Assembly (NCBI GenBank): GCA_050246455.1
Contig: JBFWWA010000001.1
Location: forward strand, 1 to 36,643
Reading direction: 5' to 3'
Length of the DNA: 36,643 nucleotides
DNA from: Planctomycetaceae bacterium
GTDB lineage: Bacteria; Planctomycetota; Planctomycetia; Planctomycetales; Planctomycetaceae
This document shows, piece after piece, positions 21,233 through 28,050 of the stretch (position 1 is the first letter of the stretch; each line of letters starts with the position of its first letter). Made by a program: the position numbers and the translations under genes. The notes beneath the pieces are model-generated. The model was not told the DNA's origin. It made no database searches and worked only from the letters and a program-made list of their open reading frames with translations.

Positions 21233-23755
21233 CTAATCGACGTAGACAAATTCGTTCAGGTTCAAGAGAACCAGGCAGAGCGAACGCTTCGCTTCGCGGC
21301 TTGCCGTCTCGTCGGTCGTTCCGGTTTTTGAGAGGAATCGCTGACGCTGCTCCGCGAGCATTTCGACAGCGACGTTTCGTTCCTGCTCTGACGGATCGCG
21401 GCCGAGTGTGCGGCGGAATGCGATGGTTGCGAACTCGCTGTCGCTTGCTCCTCCCTCGGATGTCGCACGGTCGGTCAATGCGACGGCCTGGCTTCGCAGG
21501 AATTCGCTGTTGAGCAGCATCAGCGCCTGGGGCGCGACGGTTGTGATCGGCCGGACGCCGAGCGTCTCGGCGGTGTTCGTGTAATCGAACGCTTCGAGCA
21601 TCGGGACCATCAGCGTCCGCTTCACGTAGATGTAAACGCTGCGGCGATCTTCCTCGACGGGATTGCTCTTTCCCCAGCCGTGGCCCGGCTTCGATTGCGT
21701 GGCAAGAACTTCCTGCGAGAGCGCCGGAAAAATTCCGCGCCCGGTCATCAATGTGTTGAGGCGTCCGCTTGCGGCGAGGACCGAATCGCGAATTGCTTCC
21801 GCGTCGAGCCGGCGCAGGTTCTGCCGCCAGAAGAGTTCGTTGCCGGGATCGATCGCGTGCGCTGTTGGGTTGTCGGCGGCCGACGACATGCGATACGCAT
21901 TCGACGTCATGATCAGCCGGTGCAGCTTCTTGATCCGGAATCCGCCGTCGATGAACTCGCGCGCGAGCCAGTCGAGCAGTTCGGGGTGCGTCGGCTTATC
22001 GCCGGCCCGGCCGAAGTTGTCGGACGAACTGACGATGCCGCGGCCGAAGTGATGCTGCCAGAGGCGATTCACGAAAACGCGCGCGGTGAGAGGATTGTCG
22101 CTGGAAACGATCCAGTCGGCGAGTGCTCTGCGCCGACCCGGCGATTTCTGGACACCGAGCTCGGAGAGCATGCCGCGCCAGTCGTTCGGCTTGTTCGTCT
22201 CATTGAGTGCGAGCGAAACCGGCTTCGTTGCTTCACTGCCGCCGAAGATCTTCGGAAGTCCCGCTTCGACTTTCTTCCCGGGCGAGAGCGCGCTGCCGCG
22301 AACGAGAACATGCGTGGCCTTCGTCCCTGCGTGCGGCTCGCGGACCGAAAGCGCCACCTCGAACGGAACTCGCTCCAGTTCTTCGCTGACCCGCTTGATC
22401 TCTCCTTCGAGCTTCTTCTTTGCCTCGGCGGTGCCGGGGTTGAGCTGCTTTTCGATCGAAGCGATCTGACCGCGGAGCTGCGTCAGTTCCGCCTGAAGTT
22501 TCTGTTCCCGCGCTTTCCACTCGGCGACCTGGTTCCCCGTGGGGAGAGGGGTGAAGATCCCTTTCTTGTTCGGCCCGAAGTGTGTTTCGGACAGGGCAGC
22601 GCCGTACGGTTCGACGTTGCGGAAGAAGGCGAGGAGCCGGTAGTAATCTTCCTGCGGCAGCGGATCGAATTTGTGATCGTGACAGCGCGCACAACCAAGC
22701 GTGAGACCAAGAAACGCCGAGCCCGTCGTCTTGAGCATTTCGTCGAGTTCGTCGAACTCGGCGGTGCGGCGATCGTCGGGCTCATCATCCCAAACGCCGA
22801 GCCGATAGAAGCCCGTGGCGATGATCGTCTCGCGAGACACGTCGTCGAGCTCATCGCCCGCCAGCTGTTCACGGAGGAATCGGTCGTACGGCTTGTCGGC
22901 GTTGAGCGAGTCGATCACGTAGTCGCGGAAGCGCCACGCTTCGGGCTTCTCGTCGTCGCGCTCATAGCCGTTGGTTTGCGCGAAGCGGACGAGGTCGAGC
23001 CAGTGCCGCCCCCACCGCTCGCCGTAGTGCGGACTCGCCAGTAATCGGTCGATAGCGCGCTCGAATGCGAGGGGCGAATCGTCAGCCGCAAAGGCGCGGA
23101 CATCGTCGGCGGAGGGAGGGAGTCCGACGAGGTCGTACCAGGCGCGGCGCAGGAGAGAGCGCTTGTCGGCCTCGGGATTGGGGGCAATGCTCTTCTCGTC
23201 GAGCCGGGCGAGAAGAAAGTGATCGATCGCGTTCGCGGCTGCCGCCGGTTGCCTGATTGTCGGGACGGAGGGACGGACGAGTGGTTTGAACGACCAGTGA
23301 TTCCGATCGTCATCGGTGATCTGGAAATCGCCTTTACGGGTCACTGCGCCGGGTTGTTCGGCCGGCCAGGGCGCGCCCATCTTCACCCAGTCGGTAATCG
23401 CGGCGATCTCCCCTTCCGCGAGCTTTCCGGTCGGGGGCATCTCGAGGCCGTTGTAGTTGAGCGCCTCGATGAGCAGGCTTTCTTCGGGCTTGCCGGCGAC
23501 AAGTGCGGGGCCGGAATCGCCACCGGCAAGAATTGCGGAGAGGGAGTCGAGGCTGAGCCCTCCTTTGTGCTTCTCGCCCGCGTGGCATTTCTGGCATTTT
23601 GCGGCGAAGACCGGGCGGACTTTGGTCTCGAAGAACTCAATCTGGGCGGGTGTGGGGGTGGGACGGGGAGCTTCGTCCGCGGCGAGCGGCCAGACCGAGC
23701 AGCAGGCGACAAGTGTCGCGCAGGCCAGGAATCGAGTGTGGGCGCGTTGAGTCAT
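21233..23755 (-). CDS. Planctomycete cytochrome c (PSCyt) - DUF1549 - DUF1553 protein
   Basis: ORF 21233..25066 was trimmed to the ATG at 23755 (MTQRAHTRFLACATL..., signal peptide, GGAG upstream). It has the heme motif CQKCH. DUF1549 is marked by NAIDHFLLARL and RHWLDLVRFAQTNGYE. GCARCHDHKFDP is present. DUF1553 is marked by HPELLDWLAREF. Confidence 0.92.
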   Translation of the reverse strand: MTQRAHTRFLACATLVACCSVWPLAADEAPRPTPTPAQIEFFETKVRPVFAAKCQKCHAGEKHKGGLSLDSLSAILAGGDSGPALVAGKPEESLLIEALNYNGLEMPPTGKLAEGEIAAITDWVKMGAPWPAEQPGAVTRKGDFQITDDDRNHWSFKPLVRPSVPTIRQPAAAANAIDHFLLARLDEKSIAPNPEADKRSLLRRAWYDLVGLPPSADDVRAFAADDSPLAFERAIDRLLASPHYGERWGRHWLDLVRFAQTNGYERDDEKPEAWRFRDYVIDSLNADKPYDRFLREQLAGDELDDVSRETIIATGFYRLGVWDDEPDDRRTAEFDELDEMLKTTGSAFLGLTLGCARCHDHKFDPLPQEDYYRLLAFFRNVEPYGAALSETHFGPNKKGIFTPLPTGNQVAEWKAREQKLQAELTQLRGQIASIEKQLNPGTAEAKKKLEGEIKRVSEELERVPFEVALSVREPHAGTKATHVLVRGSALSPGKKVEAGLPKIFGGSEATKPVSLALNETNKPNDWRGMLSELGVQKSPGRRRALADWIVSSDNPLTARVFVNRLWQHHFGRGIVSSSDNFGRAGDKPTHPELLDWLAREFIDGGFRIKKLHRLIMTSNAYRMSSAADNPTAHAIDPGNELFWRQNLRRLDAEAIRDSVLAASGRLNTLMTGRGIFPALSQEVLATQSKPGHGWGKSNPVEEDRRSVYIYVKRTLMVPMLEAFDYTNTAETLGVRPITTVAPQALMLLNSEFLRSQAVALTDRATSEGGASDSEFATIAFRRTLGRDPSEQERNVAVEMLAEQRQRFLSKTGTTDETASREAKRSLCLVLLNLNEFVYVD

Positions 23756-24004
23756 CTGTGCTCCAAGTATGCCGCGCCGGGGAGTGCGGGGAGCCGCGCG
23801 CCCACAGAACATCCATAGATCAAAATATCCGGATCGATGGGAGGTCGCAACACCGCTTGAAGCGGCCTGAATACCCAGGAATCTGCCCGGATTCCGGCAG
23901 ATCCGGTGATTGTGCGGCGGGCAACGCCCAATTGAACGCCTCGCGCCCGTCGGATAGGCTGGTTTCGTGGAACAAATGTTCTCCGGGATCGGAAAAGGAA
24001 GCCC

Positions 24005-25699
24005 ATGTCTGACGCGCTCAACCTGGAAGCGACATACGATTCTGATGCCGACGAAGTCGATCGGAGCCGGCTTCCATTCTCGCTCTTGCTGGAACTCGAC
24101 GTCCGCGATCCCGACACCATCGCGGAGCTCGTCCGGCATGGCGAAGGTGGGGAACGGGAGCACTTCGCGCTCGATGCCCTGCGGATCGGCGTGCTGGCGC
24201 TCAAGCAGGCGCGCGGCCAGATCGATGCCGACCTCGTGCGGCGAGAAAGCGAACGACTCCTCGGCGACCTGGCGACGAGGCTCGACGGGCACTCGCGCCT
24301 CGTCAACGACACACTGACACGGACGCTCAAGGATTATTTCGATCCCGAGAGCGGTCGTTTCGAAGAGCGGGTCAACCGGCTCATCAAGCAGGACGGGGAA
24401 CTCGAGGGGATTCTCCGCCGACAGATCGGCTCGGACGACTCGCAATTGGCGCGAACCCTTGCGACACATTTCGGGGCAGACAGTCCGCTTCTCAAGTGGC
24501 TCAGCCCCGATCAATCGCAGGGGCTCATGGCGGCTCTTCGAGAAACGCTCGAAAACCAGTTGCAGGTGCAGCGCGAGCACGTGCTCAGCCAGTTCTCGCT
24601 CGACAACAAGGAAAGCGCGCTGACGCGGTTCATCTCGGAGCTCACCGATCATCAGGGGAAGTTTTCCGAGCAGCTGCAGGGGAAGATCGACGAGGCGGTC
24701 CGCGAGTTCTCGCTGGATGACGAAACTTCTGCGCTGAGCGGGCTGGTTCGGCGCGTGACCGAAGCGCAGAAGACGATTACGAGCGAGTTCTCGCTCGACG
24801 AGGAGAAGTCGGCGCTTTCCAAGCTGAAGCGGATTCTCGAAAACACGAACGAAGCGATCGAGAGCCATCTGTCGCTCGACGTCGAAGATTCCGCTCTCGC
24901 GCGGTTGAAGCGGGAACTTCTGAAGCTGCACGAAGAACATCACGAAGTGAATCGCAAGTTTCAGGAGGAAGTGCGCGAGACGCTGCAGGCGATGATCATC
25001 CGGAAGAAGGAAGCGGCCCGCTCGACGACGCACGGAATTGAATTTGAAGAAGCCGTTTACGAGCACCTCAGCCGTGAAGCCCAGCGCTACAGCGATGTCG
25101 CGGAACGCTGCGGATCGTCAACGGGGCAGATCAAAAACTGCAAGACCGGCGACTGCATCCTCGTGCTCGGTCCCGAATGCCTGGCGGGTGGTGCGCGAAT
25201 CGTACTCGAAGCGAAAGAAGTTGCGGGCTATTCGCTGACGGACGCCCGGGCCGAAATTGAACAGGCGCGGCAGAACCGGGATGCGCAAGTGGGAGTCTTC
25301 GTCTTTTCGCGAAAATTCGCACCGGAGGGGATCGAGCCGCTGTCACGCTTTGGAAATGATGTGATGATCATCTGGGATGCGGAAGATGCAACTTCCGATC
25401 TTTACTTCCGCGCGGGACTGTCGCTGGCGAGGGCGCTCTGCGTCCGCAACAAGACGATGACGGAAACGCAGAAGGTCGATTTTCAGGAGATCGACCGGGC
25501 GATCCTCGAGATCGAAAAGCGGTCCATGATGCTCGAAGAGATCGACAAGTGGGCGGCGACCATCAAGAACAACGGCGAGAAAATCATCGATCGTGTCCGC
25601 ACCTCTCGAGCGGCACTCGAAAAGCAGGTCGGCATTCTTCGCGAGAAAACGGACGAGTTGAAGGCATCCACCGAAGCGGGCGAAGCGGAAGAGGCCTGA
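24005..25699 (+). CDS. Helical-repeat protein with C-terminal PD-(D/E)xK nuclease-fold block (uncharacterised)
   Basis: The 564-aa ORF has high GC3 and AAGGAAG upstream. It contains four FSLDxxxSALxxL repeats (24593-24919). The block GIEFEE...TGDCILVL...RIVLEAKE...VGVFVFS (about 25034-25320) fits an E / D / ExK nuclease core like those of RmuC- and DUF2130-type proteins. A coiled coil closes the C-terminus. Confidence 0.8.
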   Translation: MSDALNLEATYDSDADEVDRSRLPFSLLLELDVRDPDTIAELVRHGEGGEREHFALDALRIGVLALKQARGQIDADLVRRESERLLGDLATRLDGHSRLVNDTLTRTLKDYFDPESGRFEERVNRLIKQDGELEGILRRQIGSDDSQLARTLATHFGADSPLLKWLSPDQSQGLMAALRETLENQLQVQREHVLSQFSLDNKESALTRFISELTDHQGKFSEQLQGKIDEAVREFSLDDETSALSGLVRRVTEAQKTITSEFSLDEEKSALSKLKRILENTNEAIESHLSLDVEDSALARLKRELLKLHEEHHEVNRKFQEEVRETLQAMIIRKKEAARSTTHGIEFEEAVYEHLSREAQRYSDVAERCGSSTGQIKNCKTGDCILVLGPECLAGGARIVLEAKEVAGYSLTDARAEIEQARQNRDAQVGVFVFSRKFAPEGIEPLSRFGNDVMIIWDAEDATSDLYFRAGLSLARALCVRNKTMTETQKVDFQEIDRAILEIEKRSMMLEEIDKWAATIKNNGEKIIDRVRTSRAALEKQVGILREKTDELKASTEAGEAEEA

Positions 25700-25712
25700 G
25701 GATTCATCGCGC

Positions 25713-26636
25713 ATGATTGTCACCTGCCCGCGCTGTTCGACGCGGTATCGCCCGTATGGCGAAGACTACGACTACGAAGAAACAAAGAAGACCGCGGTCG
25801 ACAACTGGATCAAGGTTGTCTGTCCCGTCTGCGAACAGTGGGTCCGCCTGAACGACGGCAAGAAAATCCCGCCCCCCAACGTGGCGCCCGAGTACCTCCA
25901 GCAGGCGAAAGCGCAGGCGGAGATCGTCGAGGACGGAGAGGTAGACGACGAACCCCGAAAGTCTTCTTCGCGCACCGGATCGGCAACCGTCAGCGGGCGC
26001 TGTCCGGAGTGTCGTGCGAAGTTTCGCGCACCGGGGAAGTTCGCGGGGAAGTCCGTCAAGTGCCCCCGCTGCAAGGGGAGCGTCCCGATCCCGGAAATCG
26101 ACACCGAAGATTGGGGGGATGCCGGCGCGTGGGAGCCGATGCCGTCATCGAGCCGCTCTCACCAAGCGAGCGGCGGGCTTGCCGGCGTCCTGGATTTTGC
26201 GAACTGGCCTCCCGCCAGAAAGTACTGGGCGCTCGGATCCTCCGTGGCGATCCTGCTGGTGATCGGGTGCGCCGTCGCGTTCTCGTACGGTAAGAAAAGC
26301 GCGGCTGGTCCCCGCAAGAACTTCACCGAGATCGAGCGGCATATCCATGGGGATCCGCCGGCGTTCGGAATGCGGGGAGGGATCGGGCCCGCCCCGGGGC
26401 AGCCTTTCCCCCCTCCCGGGTTCGAGGTCCGCGCTCCGAAACATAATGTGAAGTACTCACCCGGTGATCGGGTTCGCGCAAAGTTCGCGGGGCGAATCTT
26501 CGCAGCGGAGGTGGTCGAACAGCTCACCGACAACCTCGTGCAGCTTCGTTCTCTCGGAATCGAAGAAGGTGAGCCGGCGCGGCTCATCGAAAAAGGGAAC
26601 ACCATTGCAATTCGCGTCGACGATATTCTGCCGTAG
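25713..26636 (+). CDS. Double zinc-ribbon, single-TM protein with C-terminal Tudor/SH3-like domain (uncharacterised)
   Basis: The ATG lies 13 nt after the upstream stop, preceded by GAGGA. The zinc ribbons are CPRC...CPVC and CPEC...CPRC. The TM helix is YWALGSSVAILLVIGCAVAF. A P/G-rich linker follows. The C-terminal segment is YSPGDRVRAKFAGRIFAAEVVEQL... Confidence 0.8.
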   Translation: MIVTCPRCSTRYRPYGEDYDYEETKKTAVDNWIKVVCPVCEQWVRLNDGKKIPPPNVAPEYLQQAKAQAEIVEDGEVDDEPRKSSSRTGSATVSGRCPECRAKFRAPGKFAGKSVKCPRCKGSVPIPEIDTEDWGDAGAWEPMPSSSRSHQASGGLAGVLDFANWPPARKYWALGSSVAILLVIGCAVAFSYGKKSAAGPRKNFTEIERHIHGDPPAFGMRGGIGPAPGQPFPPPGFEVRAPKHNVKYSPGDRVRAKFAGRIFAAEVVEQLTDNLVQLRSLGIEEGEPARLIEKGNTIAIRVDDILP

Positions 26637-26647
26637 TCGGACCGCGT

Positions 26648-27022
26648 TCAAGGCGTGATGACGCGCTGCTTGTTCTCGCGGTCGGTCAGCGTCACGCTCG
26701 TTCCTTTCTTGTCTGTCGCAAGACGAACCGTCGGCTCGACGCGGTCGTCGAACAGAAGCAGGCCGGTCCCTCCGTCAATCGAGCTGCCGATCTTGACGCG
26801 GACCTGCCCGTTGCCGTCCCGGAGGCGAATATTGCCGCTGCCGTCCTCTCCGAGAAACAGCTGAGCCCGCGCCTGTCCCTGCTTGTCGACCAGTTCGATG
26901 ACTTCGGCCCGGACGATTTTTTCCGGCCTCGGCTGCTGGTCCGAGACCGCGACCGACCAATGCCCGAGCACCAGCACGATGTTGAGAGCCGTGAGGATGT
27001 AGAAAATCTTTTCGCGTTTCAT
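26648..27022 (-). CDS. Membrane-anchored hypothetical protein
   Basis: The 124-aa ORF has an N-terminal TM helix (IFYILTALNIVLVLGHW) followed by a beta-rich repetitive region (GNIRLRDGNGQVRVKIG...). It is convergent with the zinc-ribbon gene. Confidence 0.55.
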   Translation of the reverse strand: MKREKIFYILTALNIVLVLGHWSVAVSDQQPRPEKIVRAEVIELVDKQGQARAQLFLGEDGSGNIRLRDGNGQVRVKIGSSIDGGTGLLLFDDRVEPTVRLATDKKGTSVTLTDRENKQRVITP

Positions 27023-27148
27023 GATTGTCTGCCTGTATCGGAACGGTGATCATGAACTCGAGACGATTTGACGCTGCATTTCACTCTATTTCCGCTGATC
27101 TCCGAAAACAATCGGTACTTTCAAGTCTGAGTCCATGGAAGCGAAACG

Positions 27149-27625
27149 ATGAGTAAGGCTTCGCTGACGATTCGAACGGCGACTGCCGCGGACGAACCGG
27201 CTGCTGCAAAACTCGCGGACGAGGTCTACGCAGCGCTCCGATCGATCTACCGTCCCACGGAAATGGCTCAGTCGAGCGGCCACCAGCTTCAGTCGAAACT
27301 CGAACGGCTTGTGGCGTTCGACGGCACCGAGCTCGCCGGCACAGTGAAATTCTTTATCGAGCAGGGAAGCCTGCGCGTGATCGGACTGGCAGTCGGCGAG
27401 CAGCATCGGCGACGGGGGACGGCGCGCGATCTGATCGAGGAGCTGATTCGCATCGCGCGCGACCGGGGAGCAACGTCGCTCAGCCTGTACTCGGTCCCCG
27501 CAGCCGGGGCGGTCCCCTTCTACGAGCGGCTCGGCTTTCGAATCGTGCGCGAATGCGAGGAAGGATACTTCGAGACACCCACGGGCGAACCGGTACCTGA
27601 GGTGTTCCTCGAGCGGTCGATCTGA
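27149..27625 (+). CDS. GNAT-family N-acetyltransferase
   Basis: The 158-aa translation has acetyl-CoA motif A (VIGLAVGEQHRRRGTARDLIEEL) and FYERLGF, typical of GNATs. Confidence 0.85.
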   Translation: MSKASLTIRTATAADEPAAAKLADEVYAALRSIYRPTEMAQSSGHQLQSKLERLVAFDGTELAGTVKFFIEQGSLRVIGLAVGEQHRRRGTARDLIEELIRIARDRGATSLSLYSVPAAGAVPFYERLGFRIVRECEEGYFETPTGEPVPEVFLERSI

Positions 27626-27648
27626 AGTCGAGACGACACGAGTTGCCG

Positions 27649-28050
27649 ATGCGAAGCCTGCTGCGATGCTTCCAATATGTCTGGGCGTCACCCGCCACGC
27701 TACTGGGTTTGCTTGCGGTGATTCTCGGCTGGATGACGGGAGGGTCGATTCAGGTCGTTCGCGGGGCGATCGAAGTGCATGGGGGGCTGGTGACGAAATT
27801 CCTGAAGCACGGCCTGCCGCTTCTGGGGGCGGGTGCGGCGATGACGCTCGGGCATGTCATCCTCGGCCGCGATGTCGAATGCCTCGACTACTGCCGGAAT
27901 CATGAGCACGTCCATGTTCGCCAGTACGAGCGATGGGGACCGTTCTTTCTCCCGGCTTATATCGCCGCGAGTCTCTATTTGTGGATCCGCGGGCGTGACC
28001 CGTATCTCGACAATCCGTTCGAACGAGAAGCGTACGAATACGAATCGTGA
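27649..28050 (+). CDS. Small membrane protein with HEHVH (HExxH) motif
   Basis: The start is ATG 27649, with an alternative TTG at 27643. Hydrophobic helices flank the motif CRNHEHVHVRQYERWGP. The family is not recognised. Confidence 0.6.
   Translation: MRSLLRCFQYVWASPATLLGLLAVILGWMTGGSIQVVRGAIEVHGGLVTKFLKHGLPLLGAGAAMTLGHVILGRDVECLDYCRNHEHVHVRQYERWGPFFLPAYIAASLYLWIRGRDPYLDNPFEREAYEYES

Follow-up and report, generated by a model that had tools for sequence, protein, structure and literature searches.

The stretch of DNA analysed here, a window of 36,643 nucleotides from a Planctomycetaceae bacterium (contig JBFWWA010000001.1), carries on its forward strand two closely spaced genes, here called A and B, which an initial annotation made from the sequence had read as a coupled, membrane-tethered module. 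Our analysis favours, with reasonable rather than high confidence, another reading, in which A is a stand-alone, conserved nuclease-fold gene likely to act in DNA processing or repair and B is an unrelated, lineage-specific neighbour. The evidence that carries this reading is that the family of A is large, strongly conserved and as yet without a name, that within this family A is a single gene without a conserved partner, and that B and the open reading frame (ORF) downstream of it, here called ORF C, lie on an indel seen only in this narrow lineage.

Fold, repeats and relatives of gene A

Gene A very probably encodes a member of the PD-(D/E)xK/Mrr-like nuclease-fold family, with the following features.

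24005..25699, plus strand: gene A, an ORF of 564 aa, encoding a helical-repeat protein with a predicted Mrr-like PD-(D/E)xK nuclease fold
24593..24928, plus strand: four F/L-S-L-D-x3-S-A-L repeats (residues 197–308), inside an array of long helices (residues ~36–340)
25031..25384, plus strand: predicted PD-(D/E)xK (Mrr-like) nuclease core (residues 343–460)
25388..25693, plus strand: C-terminal long helical region (residues 462–563), probably forming a coiled coil or serving in oligomerisation

The acidic, acidic and lysine residues expected of a PD-(D/E)xK catalytic site were found at their canonical positions (E348, D383, E402 and K404), and the columns that were invariant among 36 homologues included H343, G344, F347, E348, D383, E402, K404, N424 and R425. 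Of 150 representatives from clustering at 50% identity, 146 had the GD...ExK pattern, which was also seen in archaeal homologues. Three of the four catalytic candidates named in the initial annotation, D383, E402 and K404, were thus invariant (n = 36), whereas the fourth, E346, was variable in the alignment, so that the conserved acid of helix 1 is instead E348.

A structural model of A, built with AlphaFold2 (AF2) using the 36-sequence alignment, had a mean predicted local distance difference test score (pLDDT) of 68.6, with values of 86–90 over residues ~351–480, where the elements followed each other in the order helix-strand-strand-strand-helix-strand (helices 347–361 and 411–425, strands 365–368, 384–387, 398–404 and 429–435). 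Long helices preceded this core, broken at the FSLD motifs, and further long helices followed it over residues 462–563, in agreement with the closing coiled coil that had been proposed for the protein. These C-terminal helices had a pLDDT of 55–76 past residue 490, and were conserved in the archaeal homologues, as seen in a profile alignment made with hhalign. When the model was compared with the PDB using Foldseek, the top matches were nearly all PD-(D/E)xK nucleases, including Bax1, McrC, MspJI, DdmD, BamHI and SPARDA, at probabilities of up to 1.00 and with E-values of only 3e-3 to about 0.1, the latter being modest because the query is mostly helix. The original call of a restriction-endonuclease fold with a D..ExK layout was hence borne out by model, structural search and invariant residues alike. 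McrC, Bax1 and MspJI (6ut7_G, 8gy8_A and 4f0q) ranked within the five best structural matches to the core, with probabilities of 0.69–1.00 over 129–176 columns, E-values of 3e-3 to 2e-2 and sequence identities of 9–17%; the root-mean-square deviation was 4–5 Å for McrC and Bax1 and 12.5 Å for MspJI. The partners found in these systems, that is the McrB GTPase, the XPB helicase and an SRA-like reader, were none of them linked to A.

The FSLDxxxSAL motifs, located with a regular expression, start at residues 197, 235, 262 and 289, giving spacings of 38, 27 and 27 aa. The four repeats within a long helical region, as first described, were recovered both in this way and in the AF2 model. The repeat columns were invariant in the 36-member alignment (A1), and the number of repeats is variable, since 5 of the 36 homologues lacked exactly one unit of 27 residues. 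The motif was also found in archaeal homologues.

Searching 5.8 billion proteins, we found 2,710 homologues of A among 8,000 candidates scored, as counted at 90% clustering, with the best 120 of them having 56–79% identity and covering at least 92% of A. All of their source names were uninformative, and none of them had a precomputed Pfam domain. A profile of the family, run against 1.84 billion representatives at 50% identity, gave 2,963 matches at E ≤ 1e-3, whereof 688 at E ≤ 1e-30. The family is found mainly in Planctomycetota and to some extent in Acidobacteriota; in contigs representing one genome per species, members came from Planctomycetaceae, Pirellulales, Lacipirellula, Planctellipticum and Acidobacteriota. 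The acidobacterial genes were about 50% identical to A (loci L047, L051, L055 and L062, from metagenome-assembled genomes including Chloracidobacterium and Pyrinomonadales), one of them lying on a contig of 2.3 Mb, which means that the family is not restricted to Planctomycetota.

No family model in Pfam, NCBIfam, PADLOC or PHROGs matched A. When the 36 members were scanned singly, Mrr_cat (PF04471; gathering threshold 21 bits) was the sole recurring Pfam family, with weak matches in four of them and a best E-value of 0.0033, and no meaningful match came from searching PDB sequences with either A alone or the A1 profile. Using tblastn, we found no match to A among phages; among plasmids the search found seven genes on archaeal megaplasmids, with 24–31% identity, and none on a bacterial plasmid. 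Proteins encoded on haloarchaeal megaplasmids were related to A by tblastn or BLASTP. One archaeal plasmid homologue, the 440-aa protein WP_015313854.1 of M. hollandica, scored 27.6 bits with Mrr_cat, above the cut-off of 21, and aligned to A by BLASTP with an E-value of 5e-18 over a region spanning the N-terminal ALxxGxxxLKQ block and the FSLE/FDL...SP repeats. A search with this protein yielded 61 relatives from Methanosarcinales and DPANN archaea. Comparing the A1 alignment with that of the archaeal proteins (A4) using hhalign gave a probability of 99.85% and an E-value of 1.4e-30 over 421 columns, reaching from the N-terminus to the C-terminal helices. Judging by these alignments, A is a distant, full-length relative of archaeal proteins bearing Mrr_cat, rather than a scoring Mrr_cat member itself.

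Comparing A with Mrr proteins, the shared part is the alpha/beta core with its E...D...ExK residues, and no Pfam model other than Mrr_cat gave a recurring match within the A family. In contrast to Mrr, A lacks a winged-helix or modification-reader domain at its N-terminus and has instead the 320-aa helical array with FSLD repeats and a helical tail of 100 aa at the C-terminus; moreover, A is conserved like a core gene and is not patchy in distribution, with its bacterial copies found outside any restriction-modification context. The initial annotation had instead pointed to RmuC- and DUF2130-type proteins, which combine a coiled coil or long helices with a restriction-endonuclease-fold domain. 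The general architecture is indeed shared, a part in processing chromosomal DNA is plausible for both, and A might work in an analogous manner, but A has no N-terminal transmembrane anchor, and to our knowledge the helical regions of RmuC and DUF2130 have no repeat motif of the FSLD type. Membership in either family was rejected, as neither RmuC (PF02646) nor DUF2130 (PF09903) matched A at E ≤ 1 or any of the 36 members at E ≤ 0.1, the affinity detected being that to Mrr_cat. The view that no named system is recognisable at this locus agreed with a scan of PADLOC-DB 2.0, which covers systems up to 2023 and matched no system here; its lone match was DndD, at an E-value of 0.13 and within the helical region of A, with nothing for B or ORF C.

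With the model of A as query, Foldseek against BFVD gave uncharacterised proteins of giant viruses as best matches, aligned over 314–532 columns, together with proteins named as Mrr-like, which suggests that an architecture of helices plus a Mrr-like core may also occur in nucleocytoplasmic large DNA viruses. The matches extending over 308–532 columns included Heterosigma akashiwo virus 01 A0A1C9C4X3, a Megaviridae protein and a Mrr-domain protein of CroV. An Orpheovirus Mrr-like protein was also aligned to the model, over ~200 columns.

Gene B, ORF C and their link to gene A

The features downstream of A are listed here, with the indel defined relative to the syntenic locus L082, which is the closest relative of A on a long contig (A 79% identical).

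25713..26636, plus strand: gene B, an ORF of 307 aa, encoding a near-orphan membrane protein
25713–25847, plus strand: zinc ribbon 1 of B
25986–26087, plus strand: zinc ribbon 2 of B
26211–26291, plus strand: transmembrane helix of B (residues 167–193 according to AF2), followed by a Pro/Gly linker
26454–26627, plus strand: Tudor/SH3-like barrel, the C-terminal domain of B
26648..27022, minus strand: ORF C, of 124 aa, having an N-terminal hydrophobic helix as anchor
25700..27148, no strand: indel of ~1.45 kb containing B and ORF C

Locus L082 has retained PSCyt/PSD1 and DUF1501 upstream of A and, downstream of it, a GNAT gene (63% identical) and a gene of 133 aa (86% identical), the counterparts of which in the window lie at 27149..27625 and 27643..28050, respectively. 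Both B and C are missing from it, with the stop codon of A abutting or overlapping the start of the GNAT gene (L082:9684-9690), and they are likewise missing from loci L083 and L084. Neither B nor C had any match when searched by tblastn against 81 A-bearing loci, and no CxxC-rich ORF was found directly after A in any of these 81; a candidate at L039 was rejected, being a spurious Arg-rich reading frame that overlaps a genuine gene. The order A-B-C was found only in L085, a contig of 2.5 kb carrying a fragment of A, with A, B and C being 94, 64 and 87% identical, respectively. With only two homologues of B in the 5.8 billion proteins, compared to more than 2,700 of A, and with B not beside A in the 81 loci, co-occurrence of the two genes was essentially absent outside the close lineage, an outcome that had been named at the outset among those that would refute the module, adjacency being confined to L085. 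It is thus highly likely that A and B do not form a conserved module, and the membrane-tethered A-B module as first conceived did not hold up.

As B starts 13 nt after A, it is probably co-transcribed with A in this genome; nothing indicates, however, that the function of A requires B.

The product of gene B is itself genuine and conserved. The architecture that had been assigned to it, of two zinc ribbons, one transmembrane helix and a Tudor-like barrel, was supported by cysteine conservation, AF2 and Foldseek. All eight ribbon cysteines were invariant in the three available sequences, in which the C-terminal domain was also conserved, and the C-terminal YSPGDRVRAKF block was present in B. 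The N-terminal CPxC..CPxC ribbon comes close to the MJ0042-type zinc finger (TIGR02098), which scored 20.8 bits against a curated cut-off of 20.9, i.e. 0.1 bit below it, with its four-Cys ribbon conserved; additional matches to Zn_ribbon_4/5 were weak and below threshold. The AF2 model of B, built from an alignment of three sequences, showed a four-stranded barrel at residues 253–301, with a pLDDT of about 80 over residues 250–305. In Foldseek, Tudor domains (TDRD1, 53BP1, SMN and PHF20), PWWP and KapB came on top, superposing at ~2 Å over ~60 columns with a target-normalised template modelling score of up to 0.76 and weak E-values of 0.05–0.3, whereas neither Pfam Tudor nor Agenet matched B. 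Residues 248–307 hold just three aromatic residues, Y248, F258 and F263, and the barrel would therefore have no Tudor-type aromatic cage for methyl-lysine or methyl-arginine. In addition to the missing cage, B differs from the Tudor/Royal family in being membrane-bound and in having next to no relatives. Positive charges flank the transmembrane helix on both sides; if the ribbons are cytoplasmic, the single helix would place the barrel outside the cytoplasm.

The distant homologue of B, P0123, is a protein of 506 aa with a multi-transmembrane insertion, and is encoded without an A-like C-terminus in the 86 nt upstream of it and with an enolase-like ORF downstream (domain assigned by eye). For ORF C, which co-occurs with B in L085, no family was found in Pfam, NCBIfam, PADLOC or PHROGs. 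As read from its sequence, ORF C has a Gly/Asp-rich and apparently beta-rich domain following the hydrophobic anchor.

Genomic context and proposed role of gene A

Clustering of the ORFs at 84 A loci revealed no neighbour family present in more than 12 of them, and the two commonest 'neighbours' were antisense ORFs within A. The neighbours that did recur resembled housekeeping enzymes, as judged by eye, and were limited to a minority of the loci. In Planctellipticum and in DPANN archaea, which have reduced genomes, A was surrounded by housekeeping genes, the DPANN copies being situated among genes for RFC, an Ogg-type glycosylase, PheRS and ribosomal proteins. A separate observation concerned the archaeal loci, where a DEAD/DEAH (ResIII-type) helicase gene was found directly beside the A homologue in two of five inspected (L088:155-3157 and L090:7434-8753).

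Upstream of A the following feature was noted.

23970..23981, no strand: GAAC-N4-GTTC palindrome GAACAAATGTTC, located 24–35 nt upstream of the ATG of A, a candidate operator

The GAACAAATGTTC block is identical in L082 while its flanks diverge. Among palindromes with two 4-nt arms and a spacer of 0–8 nt, GAAC-N4-GTTC was the sole one enriched upstream of A genes, being found at 5 loci with 0.28 expected (~18-fold). The 940 kb of the loci contained 22 exact matches, 5 of them no more than 75 nt ahead of an A gene; the sites other than that in the window are L082:7966, L037:5936, L041:5952 and L046:5927, and the distances range from 24 to 75 nt. In L037, L041 and L046 the GAAC and GTTC half-sites are kept and the spacer varies. 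In Gram-positive bacteria the LexA (Cheo) box has GAAC-N4-GTTC as its core, and the palindrome may, on the basis of this likeness, be a LexA-type or other operator that places A under control of DNA damage. No lexA gene was found in the 940 kb of A loci. According to the literature, the E. coli motif is not the one used by planctomycete LexA.

In the role that we propose, A would be an active, metal-dependent nuclease acting on DNA. Its N-terminal helical array of ~320 residues, hinged at four to six FSLDxxxSAL motifs, may form a scaffold for oligomerisation, spacing or partner binding, and the ~100 residues of C-terminal helices could serve the same purpose. Such scaffold helices might control when the nuclease engages DNA, with the arrays mediating either oligomerisation or the selection of substrate or partners. 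The process served would be chromosomal DNA processing or repair and not mobile defence, and a repair role is suggested because of the core-gene-like conservation, the housekeeping surroundings, the retention in DPANN archaea and the GAAC-N4-GTTC box. Taken by itself, the assignment of A to housekeeping DNA processing or repair rather than to defence is in our estimate evenly poised.

The main alternative, which we consider unlikely, is that A is a stand-alone type IV (Mrr-like) defence nuclease directed against modified or foreign DNA, with the helical array as a sensor or autoinhibitor. It would agree with the affinity to Mrr_cat, with the closest structures (McrC, MspJI, DdmD and SPARDA) all being defence enzymes, with archaeal homologues on megaplasmids, one of them beside a methyltransferase, helicase and RelE and another beside AAA proteins, and with Mrr-like proteins of giant viruses that align over most of the A model. 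A defence gene would, however, be expected to be patchy and island-borne, unlike A, which is kept at 56–79% identity over many planctomycete lineages in varied surroundings of a housekeeping type, with conserved synteny to close relatives and a native composition. The lack of any PADLOC or PHROG match, of copies on bacterial plasmids or phages and of a recognisable DNA-modification reader domain in A also speaks against defence, as does the position of the DPANN copies among replication and translation genes. Far less probable, and in our view very unlikely, is that A serves a structural or scaffolding purpose as a coiled-coil protein, its nuclease fold being catalytically dead or repurposed for binding only. 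Although ~75% of A consists of long helices and the number of repeats varies, E348, D383, E402 and K404 are invariant in all 36 members, and GD..ExK is retained in nearly all representatives as well as in the archaeal homologues, as would be expected if selection maintained an active site.

We also considered that A and B could be a genuine but young pair of this lineage, in which B would anchor or regulate the A nuclease at the membrane, for instance in defence or DNA uptake. The common strand, the 13-nt gap and the GAGGA preceding the ATG of B would suit such a pair, and so would the identical gene order in L085 and the conservation of B, whose zinc ribbons are intact and whose C-terminal domain is folded. 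We nevertheless judge it quite improbable, as B was not found after A in 81 loci, nor any CxxC-rich ORF in its place; as the syntenic L082, L083 and L084 do without B and C; as homologues of A outnumber those of B by more than 2,700 to 2; and as no A is found in the 86 nt upstream of the distant homologue P0123. A barrel lacking the Tudor-type aromatic cage, and residing outside the cytoplasm if the zinc ribbons are cytoplasmic, is also difficult to reconcile with it.

Several findings weigh against A being a stand-alone repair gene with B as an unrelated neighbour. Mrr-type domains are classically those of type IV restriction enzymes, and the A homologue of M. hollandica lies on a plasmid (L088), where its neighbours encode a methyltransferase, a DEAD/DEAH helicase and a RelE toxin, a setting that looks defence-like; another archaeal megaplasmid homologue adjoins AAA proteins. 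Mrr_cat did not match gene A itself at E ≤ 1, and the predicted template modelling score of the AF2 model was only 0.32, so that its arrangement of the helical array is a tentative one. The nuclease activity and the repair role are both ones that we infer from sequence and models. L085 keeps the 13-nt spacing between A and B together with a Shine-Dalgarno sequence, in line with a lineage-specific link of the two genes. Finally, the GAAC-N4-GTTC box was present at only 5 of 78 loci, and is no more than a lead because these five fall into two sequence groups (the window with L082, and L037 with L041 and L046), and no literature source for a planctomycete LexA motif was found.

With A regarded as a stand-alone conserved gene, a wider proposal would be that its family constitutes an unrecognised, vertically inherited repair or recombination nuclease, having a Mrr-like core and a new FSLD-repeat module, and being present in Planctomycetota, some Acidobacteriota, DPANN archaea, Methanosarcinales, haloarchaea and perhaps giant viruses, with control by a LexA-type GAAC-N4-GTTC box in some planctomycetes. 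We advance this proposal tentatively and hold it, as a whole, to be rather doubtful; if true, the A family would fill a gap in the core machinery of genome maintenance in those groups. Several thousand clusters of a conserved nuclease-fold protein have neither a name nor a Pfam or NCBIfam model, in spite of clear catalytic residues and a distinctive repeat module, and the reach of the family can be traced across bacteria and archaea. Defining it would improve the annotation of Planctomycetota and DPANN genomes, and A is a concrete candidate for studies of planctomycete genome maintenance. A membrane-tethered nuclease module, for its part, would have been of a new kind, but finds no support in the evidence.

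Locus layout and other upstream DNA

The ORFs of the window confirmed the layout of the locus as first described, with A and B 13 nt apart, a divergent PSCyt gene upstream and a small convergent ORF downstream. The stop codon of A is TGA at 25697–25699 and the ATG of B, on the same strand, is at 25713. A GAGGA sequence is present ahead of this ATG, as had been noted, but at 25698–25702 it overlaps the stop codon of A and does not follow it. ORF C converges on B with 11 nt between the two stops. The divergent gene 5' of A contains a CxxCH motif, as in planctomycete cytochromes, and its L082 homologue has the annotation PSCyt1/PSCyt2/PSD1; the likely ATG of this PSCyt/PSD1 gene is at 23755 on the minus strand, which leaves an intergenic region of 249 bp to A. 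The GC content at third codon positions (GC3) and the codon usage were native for the locus, again as proposed at the outset, and composition did not mark B or C as foreign.

The two palindromes that had been suggested as upstream operators exist in the sequence, the first being corrected to CCGCTT-G-AAGCGG, i.e. with a 6-1-6 arrangement. Their role as operators was rejected, since palindromes with 6-bp arms occur at ~0.55 per 250 bp in the window, which is chance level, and since both are broken in L082, the closest relative having upstream sequence. Scanning for sigma-70 consensus promoters and intrinsic terminators gave nothing exceeding shuffled sequences.

The long antisense ORFs at this locus are artefacts of high GC content and not genes. 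The ORF lister stretched the PSCyt gene to 1,277 aa (21233–25066, minus strand), running across the intergenic region and into A in antisense, and antisense ORFs within A recurred in 73–76 loci. As a further observation on the intergenic region, a perfect 8-bp palindrome, ATCCGGAT, is found at 23827–23834 within a block of 18 nt, ATCAAAATATCCGGATCG (23820–23837), that is identical in L082, and the intergenic DNA around ATCAAAATATCCGGATCG diverges in that locus.

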